Source: Escherichia coli | GTDB lineage: Bacteria; Pseudomonadota; Gammaproteobacteria; Enterobacterales; Enterobacteriaceae | Strand: one strand, 5' to 3' | Assembly: GCF_030384885.1 (NCBI RefSeq) | Contig: NZ_CP128616.1 | Length of the DNA stretch: 4,445 bases | In this document: piece after piece, positions 295-4,445 of the stretch | How positions within the stretch are numbered: position 1 is the stretch's first letter | How the letters are laid out: each line of letters opens with the position of its first letter | Program-made: the position numbers and the translations under genes | Notes under the pieces: model-generated | What the model saw: only the letters and a program-made list of their open reading frames with translations | The model's database searches: none | What the model was told of the DNA's origin: nothing

Positions 295-324
295 ATTTAC
301 CATAACATCTGTATTGTACGCACC
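295..324 (-). other. cer-like XerC/XerD site-specific recombination core (plasmid multimer resolution site)
   Basis: Reverse complement of 295-324 is GGTGCGTACAA-tacagatg-TTATGGTAAAT. Both 11-bp arms match the ColE1 cer XerC and XerD arms as I recall them (GGTGCGTACAA / TTATGGTAAAT) with an 8-bp central region, as in cer. Confidence 0.8.
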
Positions 325-520
325 GTTAAAACGCGCTCAGCGCGATTCTGGCGCAAAAACCGTAAAAAGGGATGTTTTCCCCGGGGTAAACCGGAAAAAT
401 GCGTCAGGATTGTTTTCAGCGCGTTGCATGACTATGCATGAAACTGAATGGCAATCGATCCGGGCGCGTCCGCTGTCCCTGAGGCTTATTTTTGGCAGTT
501 TTCTTTCTGTCTGCGTCACA
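325..520. promoter_or_regulatory. Putative cer accessory region (ArgR/PepA side), with a candidate ARG-box-like dyad at 425-440
   Basis: Lies on the XerC-arm side of the core, where cer accessory sequences sit. tgcatgactatgcatg at 425-440 loosely resembles an ARG box (TNTGAATWWWWATTCANW). Extent and ARG box are inferred, not matched to a reference. Confidence 0.35.
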
Positions 521-780: not shown

Positions 781-1021
781 ACATCCGACAAAATAGAATT
801 TTTTGCCAGATAAACACCACTATAACGCACTGAATTTAAAGTAAAATCACGCAAAACGCAGTTTTGCGACAGGTGTGGTAAATGCAGGTCAGAGGAGAGG
901 GGAATTTCAGGCGCGGAGCCGGTCCTGGTTCGGGCTACAGGACTCTCAGAAAAAGCGAATAAATTTGCGCTGGCCGTCAGAGCATTACGCCGGGGTATCG
1001 GGGTGAAACCCTGAGCAGGAG

Positions 1022-1061
1022 GTAATTGTAATAGCGTCACGGGTGACGGTATTACAATTAC
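1022..1061. repeat. 19-bp near-perfect inverted repeat (palindrome) with 2-bp centre
   Basis: gtaattgtaatagcgtcac gg gtgacggtattacaattac; arms are reverse complements with one mismatch (G/G at 1034/1049). Confidence 0.8.
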
Positions 1062-1411
1062 ACATCCTGTCCTGTGTCAGGCAGCCGGATACGGTCGTCC
1101 TGGTGGCAACAGTCGGGCAGGGGGTACAACTGTACCCCGTCACATCCGCAAAAGATTTACGGCACGAAACAGGAGCGACGCAACAACTGCCGGTAACACG
1201 ACCCCATGAACGGGACAGGATGTGTAATCGTATAACCGCGCACGCACGTTCATCCGATTACAACCTGGTCAGGGCTTTACCCCGACACCCACGATGTGAT
1301 GAACGGATGAACATAAAACAACCGGAAAAACGCTCACTGTCCAGGCAAAGAACGGAACACGGCATAATCACATGATGCTGAATACAGAGACAGAACGGAG
1401 AACGACAGAAG

Positions 1412-1615
1412 GTGAACAAACAGCAGCAAACTGCACTTAACATGGCGCGATTCATCAAAAGCCAGAGTCTGACACTGCTTGAAAAGCTGGATGCCCTCGA
1501 TGCCGACGAACAGGCAACCATGTGTGAACGGCTGCACGAACTGGCGGAAGAACTGCAGAACAGCATACAGACGCATTTTGAAGCGCAGTACGGCATTGGA
1601 GTGGAACAACCATAA
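1412..1615 (+). CDS. rop: Rop/Rom, RNA one modulator (ColE1 copy-number control protein), 67 aa, GTG start
   Basis: Translation MNKQQQTALNMARFIKSQSLTLLEKLDALDADEQATMCERLHELAEEL... aligns along its length with pBR322 Rop (MTKQEKTALNMARFIRSQTLTLLEKLNELDADEQADICESLHDHADEL...). GTG start as in pBR322; GGAG 12 nt upstream; sits immediately upstream of the ColE1-type origin as in pMB1. Confidence 0.9.
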   Translation: MNKQQQTALNMARFIKSQSLTLLEKLDALDADEQATMCERLHELAEELQNSIQTHFEAQYGIGVEQP

Positions 1616-1831
1616 AGACGCTGGCGAAAGCGGTCGCGGCTTGTCCGTGAGCGTTTTCGCCAGCAGACAAGCCCGCAGGGCGCGTCAGGACAGTGACCTG
1701 AGAAAGACACTGGCGCGTAAGTGCTCAAAGCAAACGGGCGGAGAAATTCCGCTTCCTCGCCCACTCGCTCACTACGTTCGGTCGCTGGGGCTGCGGCGAG
1801 CGGTGGCGGCTCTCTCATAACTGCAGACGGG

Positions 1832-1840
1832 TTATCCACA
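1832..1840 (+). promoter_or_regulatory. DnaA box (TTATCCACA) in the ColE1 origin region
   Basis: Exact TTATCCACA consensus at the position corresponding to the DnaA box of pBR322 ori (ACGGTTATCCACAGAATC). Confidence 0.7.
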
Positions 1841-1884
1841 AAATTGGGGGACAACCAGGACAGAACAAAGGCCGCGGCAGAGCC

Positions 1885-2440
1885 GTTTTTCCATAGGCTC
1901 CGCCCCCCTGACGAGCATCACAAAAACAGACGCTCAAGTCAGGGGGAGGCGAAACCCGACAGGACTATAAAGATACCAGGTGTTTCCCCCTGGAAGCTCC
2001 CTCGTGCGCTCTCCTGTTCCGACCCTGCCGCTTACCGGATACCTGTCCGCCTTTCTCCCTTCGGGAAGCGTGGCGCTTTCTCATAGCTCACGCTGTAGGT
2101 ATCTCAGTTCGGTGTAGGTCGTTCGCTCCAAGCTGGGCTGTGTGCACGAACCCCCCGTTCAGCCCGACCGCTGCGCCTTATCCGGTAACTATCGTCTTGA
2201 GTCCAACCCGGTAAGACACGACTTATCGCCACTGGCAGCAGCCACTGGTAACAGGATTAGCAGAGCGAGGTATGTAGGCGGTGCTACAGAGTTCTTGAAG
2301 TGGTGGCCTAACTACGGCTACACTGGAAGGACAGTATTTGGTATCTGCGCTCTGCTGAAGCCAGTTACCAGGTTAAGCAGTTCCCCAACTGACTTAACCT
2401 TCGAAAAACCGCCTCCCCAGGCGGTTTTTTCGTTTACAGA
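1885..2440 (-). ncRNA. RNAII replication primer precursor (ends approximate)
   Basis: RNAII promoter on the - strand: -35 TTGAGA (rc of 2469-2474), 17-bp spacer, -10 TAATCT (rc of 2446-2451), same hexamers as pBR322. 5' end placed about 2440 and 3' end about 555 nt downstream by analogy with ColE1. Confidence 0.75.
2331..2432 (+). ncRNA. RNAI antisense copy-number control RNA
   Basis: Begins ACAGTATTTGGTATCTGCGCTCTGCTGAAGCCAGTTACC as pBR322 RNAI. Upstream promoter -35 TTGAAG (2295-2300), 17-bp spacer, -10 CTACAC (2318-2323) as in pBR322. Terminator stem CCGCCT cccc AGGCGG followed by TTTTTT (2409-2430). Internal loop sequences differ from pMB1. Confidence 0.85.
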
Positions 2441-2512
2441 GCAAGAGATTACGCGTACAGAGCACGGATCTCAAGAAGATCGTAAGAAGAAAGTTAACAT
2501 GAGTGTTTTTAT

Positions 2513-2558
2513 CCCTCAAAAAGAAGGCTTCTATAAATAGAAGCCTTCTTTTTGAGGG
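2513..2558. terminator. 46-bp perfect palindrome / strong hairpin; likely bidirectional terminator between the higA 3' end and the RNAII promoter
   Basis: ccctcaaaaagaaggcttcta taaa tagaagccttctttttgaggg; 21-bp arms are exact reverse complements. T-rich sequence follows on the + strand; higA stop lies 26 bp away on the - strand. Confidence 0.65.
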
Positions 2559-2583
2559 ATAACTTATATTTTTTTAAAAAAAA

Positions 2584-2940
2584 TCATGCAATAGCATGTT
2601 TCTTCTCAGAATTATCAACAATGTGTTTCCTTTCTATGATTTCATGAGCGGGAATCACTCTGTCTATTTCTTCTTGCAATCGAGGGCTACTAGTAACCTC
2701 CCATAAATCAACAGACTGCTGTATATTTAGCCAGAACTTTGCAGTGGTATTGAAGGCTTTAGCCAACCTAAAAGCCATATCGGTAGACAGCTTTCTATTA
2801 TTGTTAACTAAAGCACTGGCAGAGTTTCTATGCACATTCAACATTTCAGCCAAGTCATTGATTTTTAAACCACTTGGTTCGAGATATTCATAAAGAATAA
2901 TATCCCCTACAGTTGATGGCTTTCTAGTTGCTTGGGACAT
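2584..2940 (-). CDS. higA: HigA-family antitoxin (XRE-type helix-turn-helix), 118 aa
   Basis: Translation ...TVGDIILYEYLEPSGLKINDLAEMLNVHRNSASALVNNNRKLSTDMAFRLAKAFNTTAKFWLNIQQSVDLW... has the pattern I recall for HigA/VapI antitoxins (PG.IL.EEFLEP.GL...LA..LGV.R......NG.R.I....A.RLA..FG.....WLNLQ). AGGAG sits 6 nt upstream of the ATG. Downstream of a HigB-family gene on the same strand. Confidence 0.85.
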   Translation of the reverse strand: MSQATRKPSTVGDIILYEYLEPSGLKINDLAEMLNVHRNSASALVNNNRKLSTDMAFRLAKAFNTTAKFWLNIQQSVDLWEVTSSPRLQEEIDRVIPAHEIIERKHIVDNSEKKHAIA

Positions 2941-3142
2941 GCTTTACTCCTAAATTTTTTACTTCTCTCTGTTAGATGAGGAAGATAAGTATTTCGTCTA
3001 TTACCAGCTGTAGCGATGAGTAATTATCTTAAATATAGTCACGTCATTTAGTTTATTAATCATTATTTGTAATGACATTTTAATGTAGGTGAGGGAACGC
3101 CTCACCTACTTGTTTTATAAGATAACAGCCACGACCTGTTAT
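2941..3142 (-). promoter_or_regulatory. higB-higA intergenic spacer (200 bp) with dyad elements; candidate independent higA promoter/operator
   Basis: Palindromes TCATTAtttgTAATGA (3060-3075) and GATAACAGccacgacCTGTTATC (3121-3143); - strand candidate -10 GATAAT; strong RBS for higA. No promoter has been demonstrated. Confidence 0.4.
3085..3109. terminator. Hairpin (10-bp perfect stem, 5-nt loop) inside the higB-higA spacer; terminator-like
   Basis: gtaggtgagg gaacg cctcacctac; followed on the + strand by TTGTTTTAT and on the - strand by A/U-rich sequence. Lies 33 nt downstream of the higB stop on the - strand. Confidence 0.5.
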
Positions 3143-3460
3143 CTATCGGTAATCATGTGGATCGAGATACAAATCCTCGATTCCGTTTTCACCCCACTTA
3201 AATATTAAGCGGTACTTCTCATTCACCCGTATGGATGAATACCCTGTCAATGGAGGGTTGAGATTCTCAAATCGGTTTCCCGGGGGAGACCGCAAATCTC
3301 CAACTTTATCAGCAGCATTCAGCATATCCAGCTTGCGACCTAATGAAGCACTAATCGCAGTTGGAATCTTTCGATTGGCTTTACCATATTTGTAAAACTG
3401 GTATAGCCAATCGTCTCGAAACTGAATGCGGCAATCATCATGTTCATGATCTTGCTGCAT
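3143..3460 (-). CDS. higB: HigB-family toxin (RelE/ParE superfamily, plasmid maintenance system killer type), 105 aa
   Basis: C-terminal region ...DLRSPPGNRFENLNPPLTGYSSIRVNEKYRLIFKWGENGIEDLYLDPHDYR matches the family signature I recall (DLRSPPGNRLE.L.G.R.GQ.SIR.N..WRL.F.W.......I.DYH). GAGGT RBS 9 nt upstream of the ATG. Toxin precedes antitoxin, as in hig loci. Confidence 0.85.
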   Translation of the reverse strand: MQQDHEHDDCRIQFRDDWLYQFYKYGKANRKIPTAISASLGRKLDMLNAADKVGDLRSPPGNRFENLNPPLTGYSSIRVNEKYRLIFKWGENGIEDLYLDPHDYR

Positions 3461-3646
3461 TTTTCTTTTACCTCAATTTTTGCCGCAACTTGGCAATTTT
3501 TTAGATCACCTTCTTACCTCCGATATAGTACAGCAAACACAAGAAATGCACAACAGCACAGTGCACTTGTGCAACCAATAACCATACTGTAGAATGCACC
3601 CACACACAGTGCAGATGTGCAAAATAGAGGGTAATTTGGAGGTTAC
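3461..3646. promoter_or_regulatory. Divergent promoter/operator region between higB (-) and the 80-aa ORF (+), with repeated TGCAC/GTGCA dyads
   Basis: Perfect palindrome TGCACttGTGCA (3562-3573), near-palindrome TGCAGatGTGCA (3610-3621) and further TGCAC copies at 3547 and 3595. Two copies of a roughly 19-bp repeat cacagtgca(c/g)(t/a)tgtgcaa (3557-3574, 3605-3622). Candidate higB promoter on the - strand: -35 TTGTGC (rc of 3548-3553), 17-bp spacer, -10 TACTAT (rc of 3525-3530). Candidate + strand promoter: -35 TTGTGC (3567-3572), 17 bp, -10 TAGAAT (3590-3595). Confidence 0.55.
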
Positions 3647-3889
3647 ATGGCTCTTGTTCGTTCAGGAAACAAAAGCAAGATTTTTGAAGCAGATAAGAAG
3701 TTTAACTCGGTTTTTGACACTGAATATCAGCCGGGAGAAACATGTAAATATGAAGGGATTTATAAATGTACCGGTTGCGGTAAAGAAGTAACTATCGCAG
3801 GTGGGAAAAAAATCCCACCACAAAACCACCACCAACATACCCCCGCGCAAGGGAACATTCGTTGGCAATTGTTTGTTTATGCTCAGTGA
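3647..3889 (+). CDS. Hypothetical small protein (80 aa) with Cys-x6-Cys-x2-Cys and a His-rich C-terminal segment; possible metal-binding or zinc-ribbon-like
   Basis: GGAGG RBS 4-5 nt upstream of the ATG; ORF starts right after the palindromic operator region, divergent from higB. Sequence ...CKYEGIYKCTGCGKEVTIAGGKKIPPQNHHQH.... No family recognised from memory. Confidence 0.55.
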   Translation: MALVRSGNKSKIFEADKKFNSVFDTEYQPGETCKYEGIYKCTGCGKEVTIAGGKKIPPQNHHQHTPAQGNIRWQLFVYAQ

Positions 3890-3899
3890 GGAATAGAAA

Positions 3900-4031
3900 A
3901 TGGCAGATCGTCGACCGCTCAACCCACACGTTGTCGTTCCTAAACCAGGCGGCGGAACTCAACCTCGTGACCGTAACAATGACGGAAGGGTCAGAGGAAA
4001 ACGCTCAGATGCAGGAAAGCCAAGAAAATAA
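3900..4031 (+). CDS. Possible small basic ORF (43 aa, MADRRPLNPHVVVPKPGGGTQPRDRNNDGRVRGKRSDAGKPRK); hypothetical
   Basis: GAGGA RBS 7 nt upstream of the ATG, beginning 11 nt after the stop of the 80-aa ORF; stop TAA at 4029-4031 lies just before an intrinsic terminator. Very short and low complexity, so coding status is uncertain. Confidence 0.3.
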   Translation: MADRRPLNPHVVVPKPGGGTQPRDRNNDGRVRGKRSDAGKPRK

Positions 4032-4035
4032 CAGC

Positions 4036-4064
4036 AAGCCGCCAGCCTGGCGGCTTTTTTATTT
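4036..4064 (+). terminator. Rho-independent terminator ending the 80-aa / 43-aa transcription unit
   Basis: aaGCCGCCAG cc CTGGCGGCtt stem followed by TTTTTTATTT. Confidence 0.75.
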
Positions 4065-4083
4065 ATATCTACAGCTGACACTG

Positions 4084-4099
4084 ATTTACCATAGCATCC
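4084..4099 (+). repeat. Copy 1 of a 16-bp motif ATTTACCATA(G/A)CATC(C/T) (XerD-arm-like)
   Basis: atttaccatagcatcc; 15/16 identical to 4365-4380 and 14/16 to 295-310 (the XerD arm plus adjacent central bases of the cer-like site). Lies 33 nt upstream of the 4132 start codon. Confidence 0.7.
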
Positions 4100-4131
4100 A
4101 CTGTATCTACTCAGTCTTGATAGGTGTTTTT

Positions 4132-4335
4132 ATGAGTAATGAATTAGACAGCCTTTCAGAAGTAGTTAAAGGACTCACAAAGATAGAGCTGCCTGGCGGC
4201 GGTGGCGGTGAAACCGATAGCCCTGTAGTTGAGGCAGCTATAGCTGTTGGCATTGTAGGGGCTGCTGCATATGGGATTTATAAGCTTTTTGGTCGCGCAG
4301 AACCCCAGAAAGATGAGGACAAACTCGGTTTCTAG
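4132..4335 (+). CDS. Hypothetical small membrane peptide (67 aa): acidic N-terminal segment, Gly5 run, one predicted transmembrane helix
   Basis: ATG at 4132 preceded by AGGTG; translation MSNELDSLSEVVKGLTKIELPGGGGGETDSPVVEAAIAVGIVGAAAYGIYKLFGRAEPQKDEDKLGF. The longer track ORF 3862-4335 is rejected because it spans the terminator at 4036-4064. Confidence 0.6.
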   Translation: MSNELDSLSEVVKGLTKIELPGGGGGETDSPVVEAAIAVGIVGAAAYGIYKLFGRAEPQKDEDKLGF

Positions 4336-4364
4336 AACCATAAGGCAGCATCAAAACGGCATTC

Positions 4365-4380
4365 ATTTACCATAACATCC
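4365..4380 (+). repeat. Copy 2 of the 16-bp motif ATTTACCATAACATCC (exact XerD-arm match, no convincing XerC arm)
   Basis: Reverse complement reads ...ggatg TTATGGTAAAT. The 11-bp arm is identical to the cer XerD arm; the flanking candidate XerC arm matches cer at only about 5 of 11 positions. Lies 46 nt upstream of the ATG at 4426. Confidence 0.7.
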
Positions 4381-4425
4381 GTTAACTGCGGCCTTGTCAT
4401 AAAAGAAATGGATATTGGAGACAAT

Positions 4426-4445
4426 ATGAGCAATAAGATCTATAG
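4426..4445 (+). CDS. 5' end of the tandem-repeat protein gene (3'-partial in window; continues in frame at position 1 if the molecule is circular)
   Basis: ATG at 4426 with GGAG 6 nt upstream; encodes MSNKIY then R from the junction codon (4444-4445 plus position 1), followed by TVSHVDGW... at 2 onward. The repeat unit sequence itself continues across the junction (aataagatctatag|a versus aataaaatctacagga). Confidence 0.6.

Follow-up and report, generated by a model that had tools for sequence, protein, structure and literature searches.

Two questions are raised by a small plasmid of the ColE1 family: does its diverged RNAI give it an incompatibility specificity of its own, and by which route could it be mobilized if the pMB1-type bom/nic segment is missing? 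Both come from the original prediction, which concerned positions 1616–2440 of the window, the whole stretch of DNA analyzed here. The window is a complete circular ColE1-type plasmid of 4445 bp. We compared it with ColE1 (NC_001371) and a pMB1/pUC-type vector origin (pKD071), used in place of pBR322.

Replication core

The rop gene (1412–1615, plus strand) encodes 67 residues from a GTG start at 1412, with an internal ATG at 1442. Its product matches Pfam PF01815 with 115.5 bits (E = 9e-34), and the homologues in relatives are annotated as Rop family. Positions 2333–2433 on the plus strand score 91.2 bits with Rfam model RF00106 (RNAI), whose gathering score is 47. On the minus strand, the RNAII primer transcript of about 550 nt (1886–2437) is assigned by colinear homology to ColE1 that extends from the RNAII promoter as far as ori. 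The alignment to ColE1 running from 2481 to 1747 shows 83.5% identity; between 1880 and 2360, identity is 85–100% per 40-nt bin, reaching 90–100% in all bins but one. Domain searches revealed no Rep-family initiator in any ORF.

By homology to ColE1, ori locates at a T-run (1886–1890, minus strand; an A-run in RNAII), and its motif GTTTTTCCATAGGCTCCGCCCCCC is invariant in the ColE1 alignment. The switch from RNA primer to DNA presumably occurs at this T-run, as in ColE1. The RNAII promoter (2446–2474, minus strand) combines a -35 hexamer TTGAGA (2474–2469) and a -10 hexamer TAATCT (2451–2446) across a 17-nt spacer, and in the alignment both are positionally identical to ColE1, CloDF13 and p15A-type hexamers. 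A sigma-70 consensus scan of 1380–2600 returned no promoters; the RNAI and RNAII promoters are weak consensus matches, assigned by homology only.

Starting at about 2437, RNAII transcription would run leftward to the origin (1886–1890), where, by analogy with ColE1, the transcript is probably processed into a DNA polymerase I primer. RNAI (2331–2437) is expected to act as the antisense inhibitor, and Rop would assist the RNAI-RNAII kissing complex. Judged from sequence, the replicon type is ColE1 (RNAII-primed and RNAI-controlled, with Rop present and no plasmid Rep), as the original prediction had it. Common to this plasmid and ColE1/pMB1 (pBR322) are the RNAII/RNAI/Rop control, the ori sequence, the RNAII body and a cer-type Xer site. 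Unlike ColE1, it carries no mbe operon.

A shortened rop-ori spacer without nic

We counted 270 nt from the rop stop codon to the ori T-run. The corresponding distance is 414 nt in ColE1 and 404 nt in a further bom-positive plasmid; in the closest relatives it is 294–295 nt. The interval, predicted to be shorter than in pBR322, is indeed 144 nt shorter than that of ColE1. A post-rop hairpin (1620–1664), identified as inverted repeat I7 and by ColE1 alignment, is retained and corresponds to the left end of the rop-bom interval in ColE1. The repeat is 20 nt long and 85% complementary, and the DNA fold of 1616–1700 has -27.7 kcal/mol (z = -4.5). The outer stem is unlike ColE1 in sequence, but the pairing is kept.

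Alignments, pattern searches and spacer lengths place the expected ColE1 bom/nic site at 1665–1746. Here about 120 nt of ColE1 sequence, including nic, are gone, and the remainder is without the nic core. The following block (1747–1865), downstream of ori, is homologous to ColE1 with 65–88% identity per 40-nt bin and nearly invariant among seven short-spacer plasmids; by its position, we take it to be the counterpart of the ColE1/pBR322 primosome-assembly region. At 1865/1866, about 20 nt downstream of ori, lies the junction of a 25-nt deletion. Alignments with the relatives show that these 25 nt occur in all those compared and are missing from the window only.

The nic core TATACTGG/CTTAAC (slashes mark the nick) is absent from the window: the 24-mer had no match with up to three mismatches, and its 12-mer core had matches at chance level only. 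Likewise, the conserved bom core TCGGGGCG.AGCCCTGA.CCAGT.ACGTAGCG.TAGCGGAGTGTATACTGGCTTAA, kept in three mbe-positive plasmids, has no counterpart in the window. The block upstream of nic (TCGGGGCG.AGCCCTGA.CCAGT.ACGTAGCG.TAGCGGAGTG) is absent or, depending on the alignment, a degenerate remnant of at most 19/35. ACTGGCTTAAC, present in ColE1 and pCPF6-unnamed3, is missing from the window. The nic pattern searches and the alignment with ColE1 and mbe-positive plasmids agree with the predicted loss of the pMB1-type bom/nic block. No Mob, Mbe or relaxase domain was found in any ORF, and mbeA–mbeC are absent in cis. A ColE1-type MbeA relaxosome would probably be unable to nick this plasmid.

One might suppose that the shortened spacer keeps a divergent but usable ColE1-type nic (ACACTGG/CGCG, 1707–1717), mobilizable by an MbeA-type relaxase in trans. 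ACTGGC at 1709–1714 reproduces the central six bases of the nic core in ColE1, and our first alignment put it near the deletion edge. A wider alignment, however, makes it homologous to ColE1 CACAGATGCGTAAG, about 70 nt downstream of nic, and we rejected ACTGGC as a leftover nic. Some short-spacer relatives have C or A in place of the T of ACTGG, GTAGCG.TAGCGGAGTGTATA, which precedes nic in three mbe-positive plasmids, is absent, and nic pattern matches do not rise above chance. In addition, relatives that have this short spacer but no I-complex oriT are classed as non-mobilizable. A residual nic is thereby made very improbable. That the short interval is an artefact of assembly or reading is harder still to credit: the 25-nt deletion at 1865/1866 is peculiar to the window, as an error would be, whereas the main shortening (294–295 versus 414 nt) recurs in six or more complete plasmids from independent assemblies and in several more divergent ones. 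Only the 25-nt difference could be an error, and the GAA microhomology on its flanks is what a real deletion typically shows.

Transfer origin look-alikes between cer and rop

With bom/nic taken as lost, we notice three oriT look-alikes between cer and rop, one F-like and two inverted I-complex copies, in a plasmid from which a relaxase gene is absent. They locate at 802–1290, outside the segment first singled out, and favor the suggestion that the plasmid uses another site.

The F-type look-alike (802–899, plus strand, by homology) has an inverted repeat at 850–868 and a predicted nic at T876/G877. It shows the F-type arrangement, an inverted repeat and then TTTGCG....GGTGT/GG, in a segment homologous to the traM / gene X intergenic region. 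TTTGCGACAGGTGT is exact in the window and in IncFIA/FIC MOBF plasmids, and it aligns with TTTGCGTGGGGTGT/GG of plasmid F. An AGCCCAC repeat array occupies 560–779, where TraY, IHF and TraM sites are expected, and has no sequence match to conjugative plasmids. The identity of 802–899 to the traM / SLT-transglycosylase intergenic region of the IncFIA/FIC MOBF plasmids is 78–81%, the highest to any conjugative plasmid found, which may count against its use as an oriT.

R64-type oriTs contain a nick region, YATCCTG/Y, 8 nt after a 17–19-nt inverted repeat, the NikA site. Typed IncI1/B/O, I-gamma/K1 and K2/Z plasmids served as I-complex references. The first copy, found by homology (991–1075, plus strand; I-gamma/K1, I1-like), is 89% identical to IncI-gamma/K1 and 87% identical to IncI1/B/O plasmids directly upstream of nikA. 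Its 19-nt inverted repeat (1022–1061) is 95% complementary, with a hairpin z of -7.4, and the nic is predicted at G1069/T1070. The second copy, also found by homology (1209–1290, minus strand; K2/Z-like), is inverted and matches the sequence upstream of the nikA homologue in an IncK2/Z plasmid at 91% identity, with a predicted nic at G1216/T1215. This copy keeps an intact nick-proximal repeat arm, but its distal arm is degraded (hairpin z = -1.8). YATCCTGY has only two matches in the window, 1063–1070 on the plus strand and 1222–1215 on the minus strand. The 8-nt spacing from repeat to nick and the exact nick position in both copies are assumed by analogy with R64.

We infer the use of each oriT from its sequence: co-resident F-type or I-complex conjugative plasmids presumably mobilize the plasmid in trans via the three copies. 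MOB-suite classes relaxase-less relatives with I-complex oriTs as 'mobilizable', in contrast to those that have the same short spacer without these oriTs, which it classes as 'non-mobilizable'. The transfer origins lie about 0.3–0.8 kb upstream of 1616–2440 and appear borrowed from large conjugative plasmids. The lack of both bom and mob genes need not equal non-transmissibility.

Published plasmids show a similar arrangement. pEC156, a mob-less ColE1-type plasmid, is mobilized by F and R64 through F-type and R64-type oriTs (PMC4743918). Like our plasmid, it combines a ColE1-type replicon, cer, rom/rop and F-type and R64-type oriTs with the lack of mob genes (PMC4743918). Compared by its published description, it differs in cargo, with the EcoVIII R-M system instead of higBA and small ORFs, and the second, inverted I-complex oriT is a feature of our plasmid, unlike pEC156 as described. 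Two inversely oriented I-complex-type oriTs are found in pBuzz, which is mobilized by a B/O plasmid (Moran and Hall 2019, cited in PMC9282650). As described there, pBuzz carries no relaxase or accessory genes, as is the case here, and is a 1982-bp rolling-circle plasmid, whereas ours is a ColE1-type theta replicon with an additional F-like oriT. On the other hand, pKPN2 has an R64-like oriT yet is not mobilized by R64 (PMC4743918); an R64-like sequence is therefore no guarantee of function. Plasmids that carry only an oriT are common in E. coli (PMC10123127).

A hybrid RNAI

RNAI (2331–2437, plus strand), delimited by the RF00106 match, folding and comparisons, is about 108 nt long. Its minimum free energy fold shows a 5' tail and then three stem-loops (z = -7.6). 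The RNAI promoter (2295–2324, plus strand), placed by alignment, has -35 TTGAAG (2295–2300) and -10 TACACT (2319–2324), both identical to ColE1 and the pMB1/pUC-type vector. The sole nearby change is A>G at 2325, just downstream. Apart from this change, the promoter and 5' end are pBR322-like, as predicted.

Aligning the stem-loops on the plus strand one by one revealed different affinities. Stem-loop I (2340–2369) is of the ColE1/pMB1 type, identical at 30/30 positions to ColE1 and to the pMB1/pUC-type vector; the 9-nt 5' tail likewise shows no difference. Against CloDF13, stem-loop I matches at 25/30 positions and the tail carries an indel. Stem-loop II (2371–2399) is of the CloDF13 type (29/29). 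Stem-loop III with the terminator (2402–2432) has a CloDF13-type loop on a p15A-type stem, matching CloDF13 at 28/32 positions with the identical loop CUCCCCAG. The two latter match ColE1/pMB1 at only 17/32 and 23/39 positions, which upholds the claim that internal stem-loops, including the string quoted at the time (2368–2399, containing stem-loop II), differ from the pBR322 type. Identity per bin flips from ColE1-like to CloDF13-like at about 2360, with 100% identity to CloDF13 in bin 2360–2399 and 92% in bin 2400–2439. The RNAII body of CloDF13 (CDF origin), in contrast, has 62–98% identity per bin to the ColE1-like body of the window; CloDF13 lacks an annotated rop and carries mobilization genes of its own. 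A p15A-type RNAI was considered and rejected: the RNAII promoter side resembles p15A, as does the stem of stem-loop III, yet all three loops differ.

This RNAI is most likely a recombinant with the switch at the conserved AGCCAGTTACC. The promoter, 5' tail and stem-loop I before it are of ColE1/pMB1 type; after it come a stem-loop II, a stem-loop III loop and an RNAII promoter side of CloDF13/p15A type. The allele would score as ColE1-like by its 5' half and CloDF13-like by its 3' half, and RNAI should be typed one loop at a time.

The 146-nt RNAI region is 100% identical in 30/30 PLSDB records among the matches listed, and 230 records have at least 99% identity. Enterobacter plasmids with both bom and mbe are among the many sequenced plasmids that share it at 100%; one E. 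hormaechei plasmid of 4783 bp has this RNAI allele together with mbe genes and a canonical nic. As far as these records indicate, the diverged RNAI loops are not new.

Incompatibility specificity

A pMB1/ColE1 specificity would have all three loops identical or near-identical, and we found this for stem-loop I only. Because just one of three loops is shared, the predicted RNAI specificity probably differs from that of pMB1/ColE1. Most likely it is closest to CloDF13; the plasmid could plausibly be compatible with pMB1 and would likely cross-react with CloDF13. The idea of a distinct specificity holds to this extent, but the specificity is not a new one. Hundreds of sequenced plasmids have this allele in common, and its loops match CloDF13, which together argue against novelty. 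Identity to a known group, named in advance as a finding that would speak against distinctness, applies in part: stem-loop II and the loop of stem-loop III equal CloDF13, while stem-loop I equals ColE1/pMB1.

The hybrid RNAI could nevertheless still inhibit a pMB1-type RNAII well, in which case pBR322-type replicons, or pMB1 and CloDF13 alike, would be incompatible with the plasmid. Its stem-loop I and 5' tail are those of ColE1/pMB1, and in ColE1 stable RNAI-RNAII pairing begins at the 5' end of RNAI. Divergent loops are by themselves no predictor of compatibility (PMC9458437). However, two of the three loops are non-complementary to the ColE1/pMB1 RNAII. ColE1 and p15A, whose loop II is identical in our alignment, still form different incompatibility groups, and CloDF13, the source type of stem-loops II and III, is listed as a separate group (PMC9458437). 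We consider effective inhibition of pMB1-type replicons unlikely. A specificity nearest to CloDF13 would predict that, in co-maintenance with vectors, interference arises with CDF-origin plasmids rather than pMB1-origin ones.

We put forward, as a tentative proposal only, that the combination of ColE1 stem-loop I with CloDF13 stem-loops II and III gives an intermediate or dual incompatibility and that, jointly, all three relaxase-less oriTs are functional. If so, the behavior of the hybrid would reveal which loops dominate specificity. Mobilization would be open to three helper families (the F-like IncFIA/FIC subgroup, I1/I-gamma and K/Z/B/O), and either DNA strand could be transferred because the two I-complex copies are inverted.

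Relatives and mosaic make-up

A cer-type XerC/XerD core, GGTGCGTACAA-TACAGA-TGTTATGGTAAAT (295–326, minus strand), was recognized by comparison with ColE1 cer and contains one of the two mosaic junctions at which lineages meet. The backbone from cer to ori probably derives from a lineage without the mbe operon and without the bom nic. Together with the hybrid RNAI and the borrowed oriTs, with which it forms a single explanation, we think it quite likely that this is a natural mosaic theta plasmid of the ColE1 family, with 1616–2440 as its replication core. It is an ordinary mosaic plasmid, and all its features match published precedents (pEC156, pBuzz). The current understanding of ColE1 biology is unchanged, and the value of the analysis is mainly practical.

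The cargo consists of higBA and small ORFs. ORFs 3647–3889, 3900–4031 and 4009–4335 and the tandem-repeat ORF have no Pfam or NCBIfam match. Matches to microRNA and leader RNA at 2496–2605 are spurious and merely reflect a perfect 26-bp hairpin at 2509–2562.

Across the whole window, identity to small plasmids of E. coli O111 is about 98.5%. The plasmids p08_4377-3 (4468 bp) and p2009C_3675-6 (4399 bp) are colinear with it over the entire circle at about 98.4–98.5% identity and share the RNAI, the short spacer, the oriT cluster and higBA. Their annotation comes from an automatic pipeline only. For STEC O111 epidemiology, the comparison records a cryptic higBA plasmid lineage that arose by recombination at Xer sites and in the ori region. 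Both relatives have 25 extra nt at window position 1865/1866, and p2009C_3675-6 has one copy fewer of a 69-nt tandem repeat than the window.

Replicon core and RNAI

RNAI (2331–2437, + strand) gives an Rfam match at 2333–2433 (91.2 bits; gathering score 47), and its 108 nt fold into a 9-nt tail and three stem-loops (−42.6 kcal/mol, z = −7.6). RNAII runs on the − strand from 2437 back to ori, at 1886–1890, and rop (1412–1615) is a 67-aa ORF with a Rop domain (PF01815, 115.5 bits). In the alignment with ColE1, 1880–2360 is 85–100% identical per 40-nt bin, and 90–100% in all bins but one, with no change in the ori motif GTTTTTCCATAGGCTCCGCCCCCC. As a strict promoter consensus scan did not pick up the RNAI and RNAII promoters, we assigned both by homology: the alignment columns of TTGAAG-spacer-TACACT (RNAI) and of TTGAGA, 17 nt, TAATCT (RNAII) are the same as in ColE1. 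Given these shared features, the label ‘ColE1-like’ in the original prediction is correct.

The RNAI promoter and 5′ end had been described as pBR322-like, and apart from one A>G at 2325 the promoter and 5′ tail are indeed the same as in ColE1 and the pMB1/pUC-type vector origin. Stem-loop I (2340–2369) matches both at 30/30 positions. The internal stem-loops have diverged from ColE1/pMB1, as was claimed, with 17/32 matches in stem-loop II (2371–2399) and 23/39 in stem-loop III (2402–2432). With CloDF13, stem-loop II matches fully (29/29) and stem-loop III at 28/32 positions, with the same loop CUCCCCAG and a compensatory G:C for A:T change in the stem. A sliding comparison revealed that ColE1-like sequence (98% in bin 2320–2359) becomes CloDF13-like (100% in 2360–2399, 92% in 2400–2439) at the AGCCAGTTACC block, common to most family members compared. 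A colicin-Y-type plasmid has a similar hybrid RNAI. The p15A-type RNAI used for comparison, which occurs in natural plasmids of p15A size and in vectors (100% identity), differs from the window in all three loops; the stem of stem-loop III is common to both, as is the side of the RNAII promoter.

The 146-nt RNAI/promoter segment 2325–2470 is 100% identical in 30/30 of the PLSDB records listed. In total, 230 PLSDB records are at least 99% identical to it, and the matches are mostly 4.78-kb Enterobacter plasmids. Judged by its sequence, the RNAI described as ‘distinct’ is a hybrid of ColE1 and CloDF13, and sequence databases show this allele to be widespread already.

An inverted repeat with 26 perfectly paired bp and a loop of 2 nt (2509–2562) separates the RNAII promoter from the higA 3′ end. 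It explains spurious microRNA matches in Rfam and probably acts as an insulator or as a terminator in both directions.

Incompatibility specificity

The original prediction took the loop divergence to imply a distinct incompatibility specificity. This is probably right in so far as loops II and III are unlike those of ColE1/pMB1; the sequences themselves are not novel, these two loops being those of CloDF13. ColE1, p15A, CloDF13 and RSF1030 have ColE1-type origins and belong to separate incompatibility groups (PMC9458437). By sequence comparison, loop II GAGUUGGUAGCUC is the same in ColE1 and p15A, whose groups differ, so one shared loop is evidently insufficient for incompatibility. With stem-loop I alone in common with pMB1, the window plasmid should coexist with pBR322-type replicons. 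It seems rather improbable that the unchanged 5′ tail and stem-loop I still cause interference with pMB1, a reading we retain because compatibility is not predictable from loop divergence alone and interactions can be asymmetric (PMC9458437). Compatibility with pBR322-type replicons is our preferred expectation, and cross-inhibition with CDF-type origins is likely, since stem-loop II of CloDF13 is shared entirely, as is the loop of stem-loop III.

The rop–ori spacer

A short rop–ori interval had been proposed, and in the window 270 nt (1616–1885) separate the stop codon of rop and the T-run of ori, versus 294–295 in the closest relatives, 404 in pCPF6-unnamed3 and 414 in ColE1. The nic block was also rightly reported missing. 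ACTGGCTTAAC is present in the pCPF6-unnamed3 and ColE1 spacers and absent from the short ones. The core TCGGGGCG.AGCCCTGA.CCAGT.ACGTAGCG.TAGCGGAGTGTATACTGGCTTAA of bom, the ColE1 transfer-nick site, is strongly conserved in three plasmids with mbe mobilisation genes, namely ColE1, pCPF6-unnamed3 and a 4783-bp E. hormaechei plasmid whose RNAI is the same as the window's. By alignment, it is absent from the window and from its closest relatives, the O111 plasmids p08_4377-3 and p2009C_3675-6; pattern searches of the window for the nic block likewise gave no match above chance. We rejected ACTGGC at 1709–1714 as a leftover nic core: the likeness is superficial, its T varies between relatives, and it is homologous to ColE1 CACAGATGCGTAAG, approximately 70 nt beyond nic.

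The post-rop hairpin (1620–1664) is still present. Its outer stem is GCTGGCGAAA...TTTTCGCCAGC in the window and GCTCCCGG...CCGGGAGC in ColE1, both complementary, and this retention of pairing despite changed sequence suggests that the structure is under selection. The block 1747–1865 is almost invariant across seven plasmids with a reduced spacer; its position is that of the ColE1/pBR322 region downstream of ori for lagging-strand primosome assembly, a role that is putative for the window. A 25-nt deletion at 1865/1866, approximately 20 nt downstream of ori and flanked by GAA microhomology, is private to the window, the 25 nt being kept in all relatives, the 98.5%-identical O111 plasmids included.

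Orphan transfer origins

No ORF of the window contains a relaxase or Mob domain. Between cer and rop, at the place of the mbe operon in ColE1, locate three oriT look-alikes without a relaxase gene (802–1290). Two resemble I-complex (IncI/K/B/O/Z-type conjugative plasmid) sites. The I-gamma/K1-type copy (991–1075, +) matches the sequence that directly precedes nikA in conjugative plasmids, at 89% identity for an IncI-gamma/K1 plasmid and 87% for an IncI1/B/O plasmid. It contains a 19-nt inverted repeat (1022–1061; hairpin z = −7.4) followed by ACATCCTG|TCC. The K2/Z-type copy (1209–1290, −) matches the corresponding part of an IncK2/Z plasmid at 91% identity, with an identical nick-proximal arm and nick region and a degraded distal arm. 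The two lie head-to-head, 146 nt separating the predicted nicks, and YATCCTGY occurs nowhere else in the window plasmid. The F-type look-alike (802–899, +) has its match in IncFIA/FIC MOBF plasmids, in the interval that separates traM from the SLT-transglycosylase gene (78–81% identity). It shares TTTGCGACAGGTGT with these plasmids, and its counterpart in plasmid F is TTTGCGTGGGGTGT|GG by alignment.

The original prediction that the plasmid is not mobilisable through a pMB1-type bom, or uses another site, agrees with the loss of bom and the presence of these look-alikes, which we infer to function in transfer. The mob-less ColE1-type plasmid pEC156 is mobilised via F-type and R64-type oriTs (PMC4743918), and pBuzz, with two inverted oriTs, is mobilised by a B/O plasmid, as cited in PMC9282650. 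In E. coli, plasmids with only an oriT are common, and approximately 88% of oriT-bearing plasmids have a single oriT (PMC10123127). As pKPN2 shows, an R64-like oriT can fail to function with R64 (PMC4743918). MOB-suite types relaxase-less relatives with the oriT cluster as ‘mobilizable’ and short-spacer relatives without I-complex copies as ‘non-mobilizable’.

AGCCCAC occurs six times at 560–779 (0.58 expected). This array contains a perfect 18-nt inverted repeat (729–746/762–779), lies 100–300 nt to the ‘traM side’ of the predicted F-like nic and occupies the position of TraM and TraY sites in F-type oriTs; its matches are in a handful of small plasmids only, and in no conjugative plasmid. 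The related short-spacer plasmid NZ_CP067429.1 carries a K2/Z-type oriT and a third, different I-complex-like variant (~1845–1928 and ~3042), the latter with the repeat GGCGTTTGTCCGG...CCGACAAATGC and then ACATCCTG. Orphan oriT sets therefore vary among relatives.

Mosaic structure and cargo

The window is a complete circular plasmid of 4445 bases, with an ORF that starts at 4408/4426, runs on across base 1 and ends at 262. Near-identical plasmids are already present in RefSeq: once circularly permuted, p08_4377-3 (4468 bp, E. coli O111:NM) matches the window from end to end at 98.5% identity, and p2009C_3675-6 (4399 bp) does so at 98.4%. No PLSDB record spans at least 80% of the window in one piece. 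pCPF6-unnamed3, which has mbe genes and bom, is 96.9–99.5% identical to 2221–4445 plus 1–325, and pEcFELIX705.3, CP098960.1 and similar mob-less plasmids are 94–98% identical to 295–2260. One lineage junction is within the conserved ori body. The other lies inside the cer-type XerC/XerD core (295–326, −), whose XerC and XerD sides come from different lineages, and this suggests that modules were exchanged through Xer recombination. Modular evolution of this kind is usual for small Enterobacterial plasmids, and each element has a known counterpart.

Two further Xer-like sites (4062–4093 and 4343–4374, −) have the XerD arm TATGGTAAAT of the cer core; all three share one orientation and bracket small cargo ORFs. 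Beyond higB, small ORFs extend up to 4335. In the ORF across base 1 (+ strand; tail 1–262), a 69-nt unit coding for 23 aa (NKIYRTVSHVDGWNGLPQYEIRG) is repeated in tandem approximately 3.8 times, and the ORF has no match in Pfam or NCBIfam. The opposite strand is also open, and the number of repeats varies between the O111 relatives. A higBA toxin-antitoxin pair occupies 2584–3460 on the − strand (higA 2584–2940, HTH_3; higB 3143–3460, PF05015, 116.5 bits). The divergent promoter region of higB and ORF 3647–3889 contains a pair of 30-nt direct repeats (within 3545–3622) with many GTGCAC palindromes, which may be operator sites.
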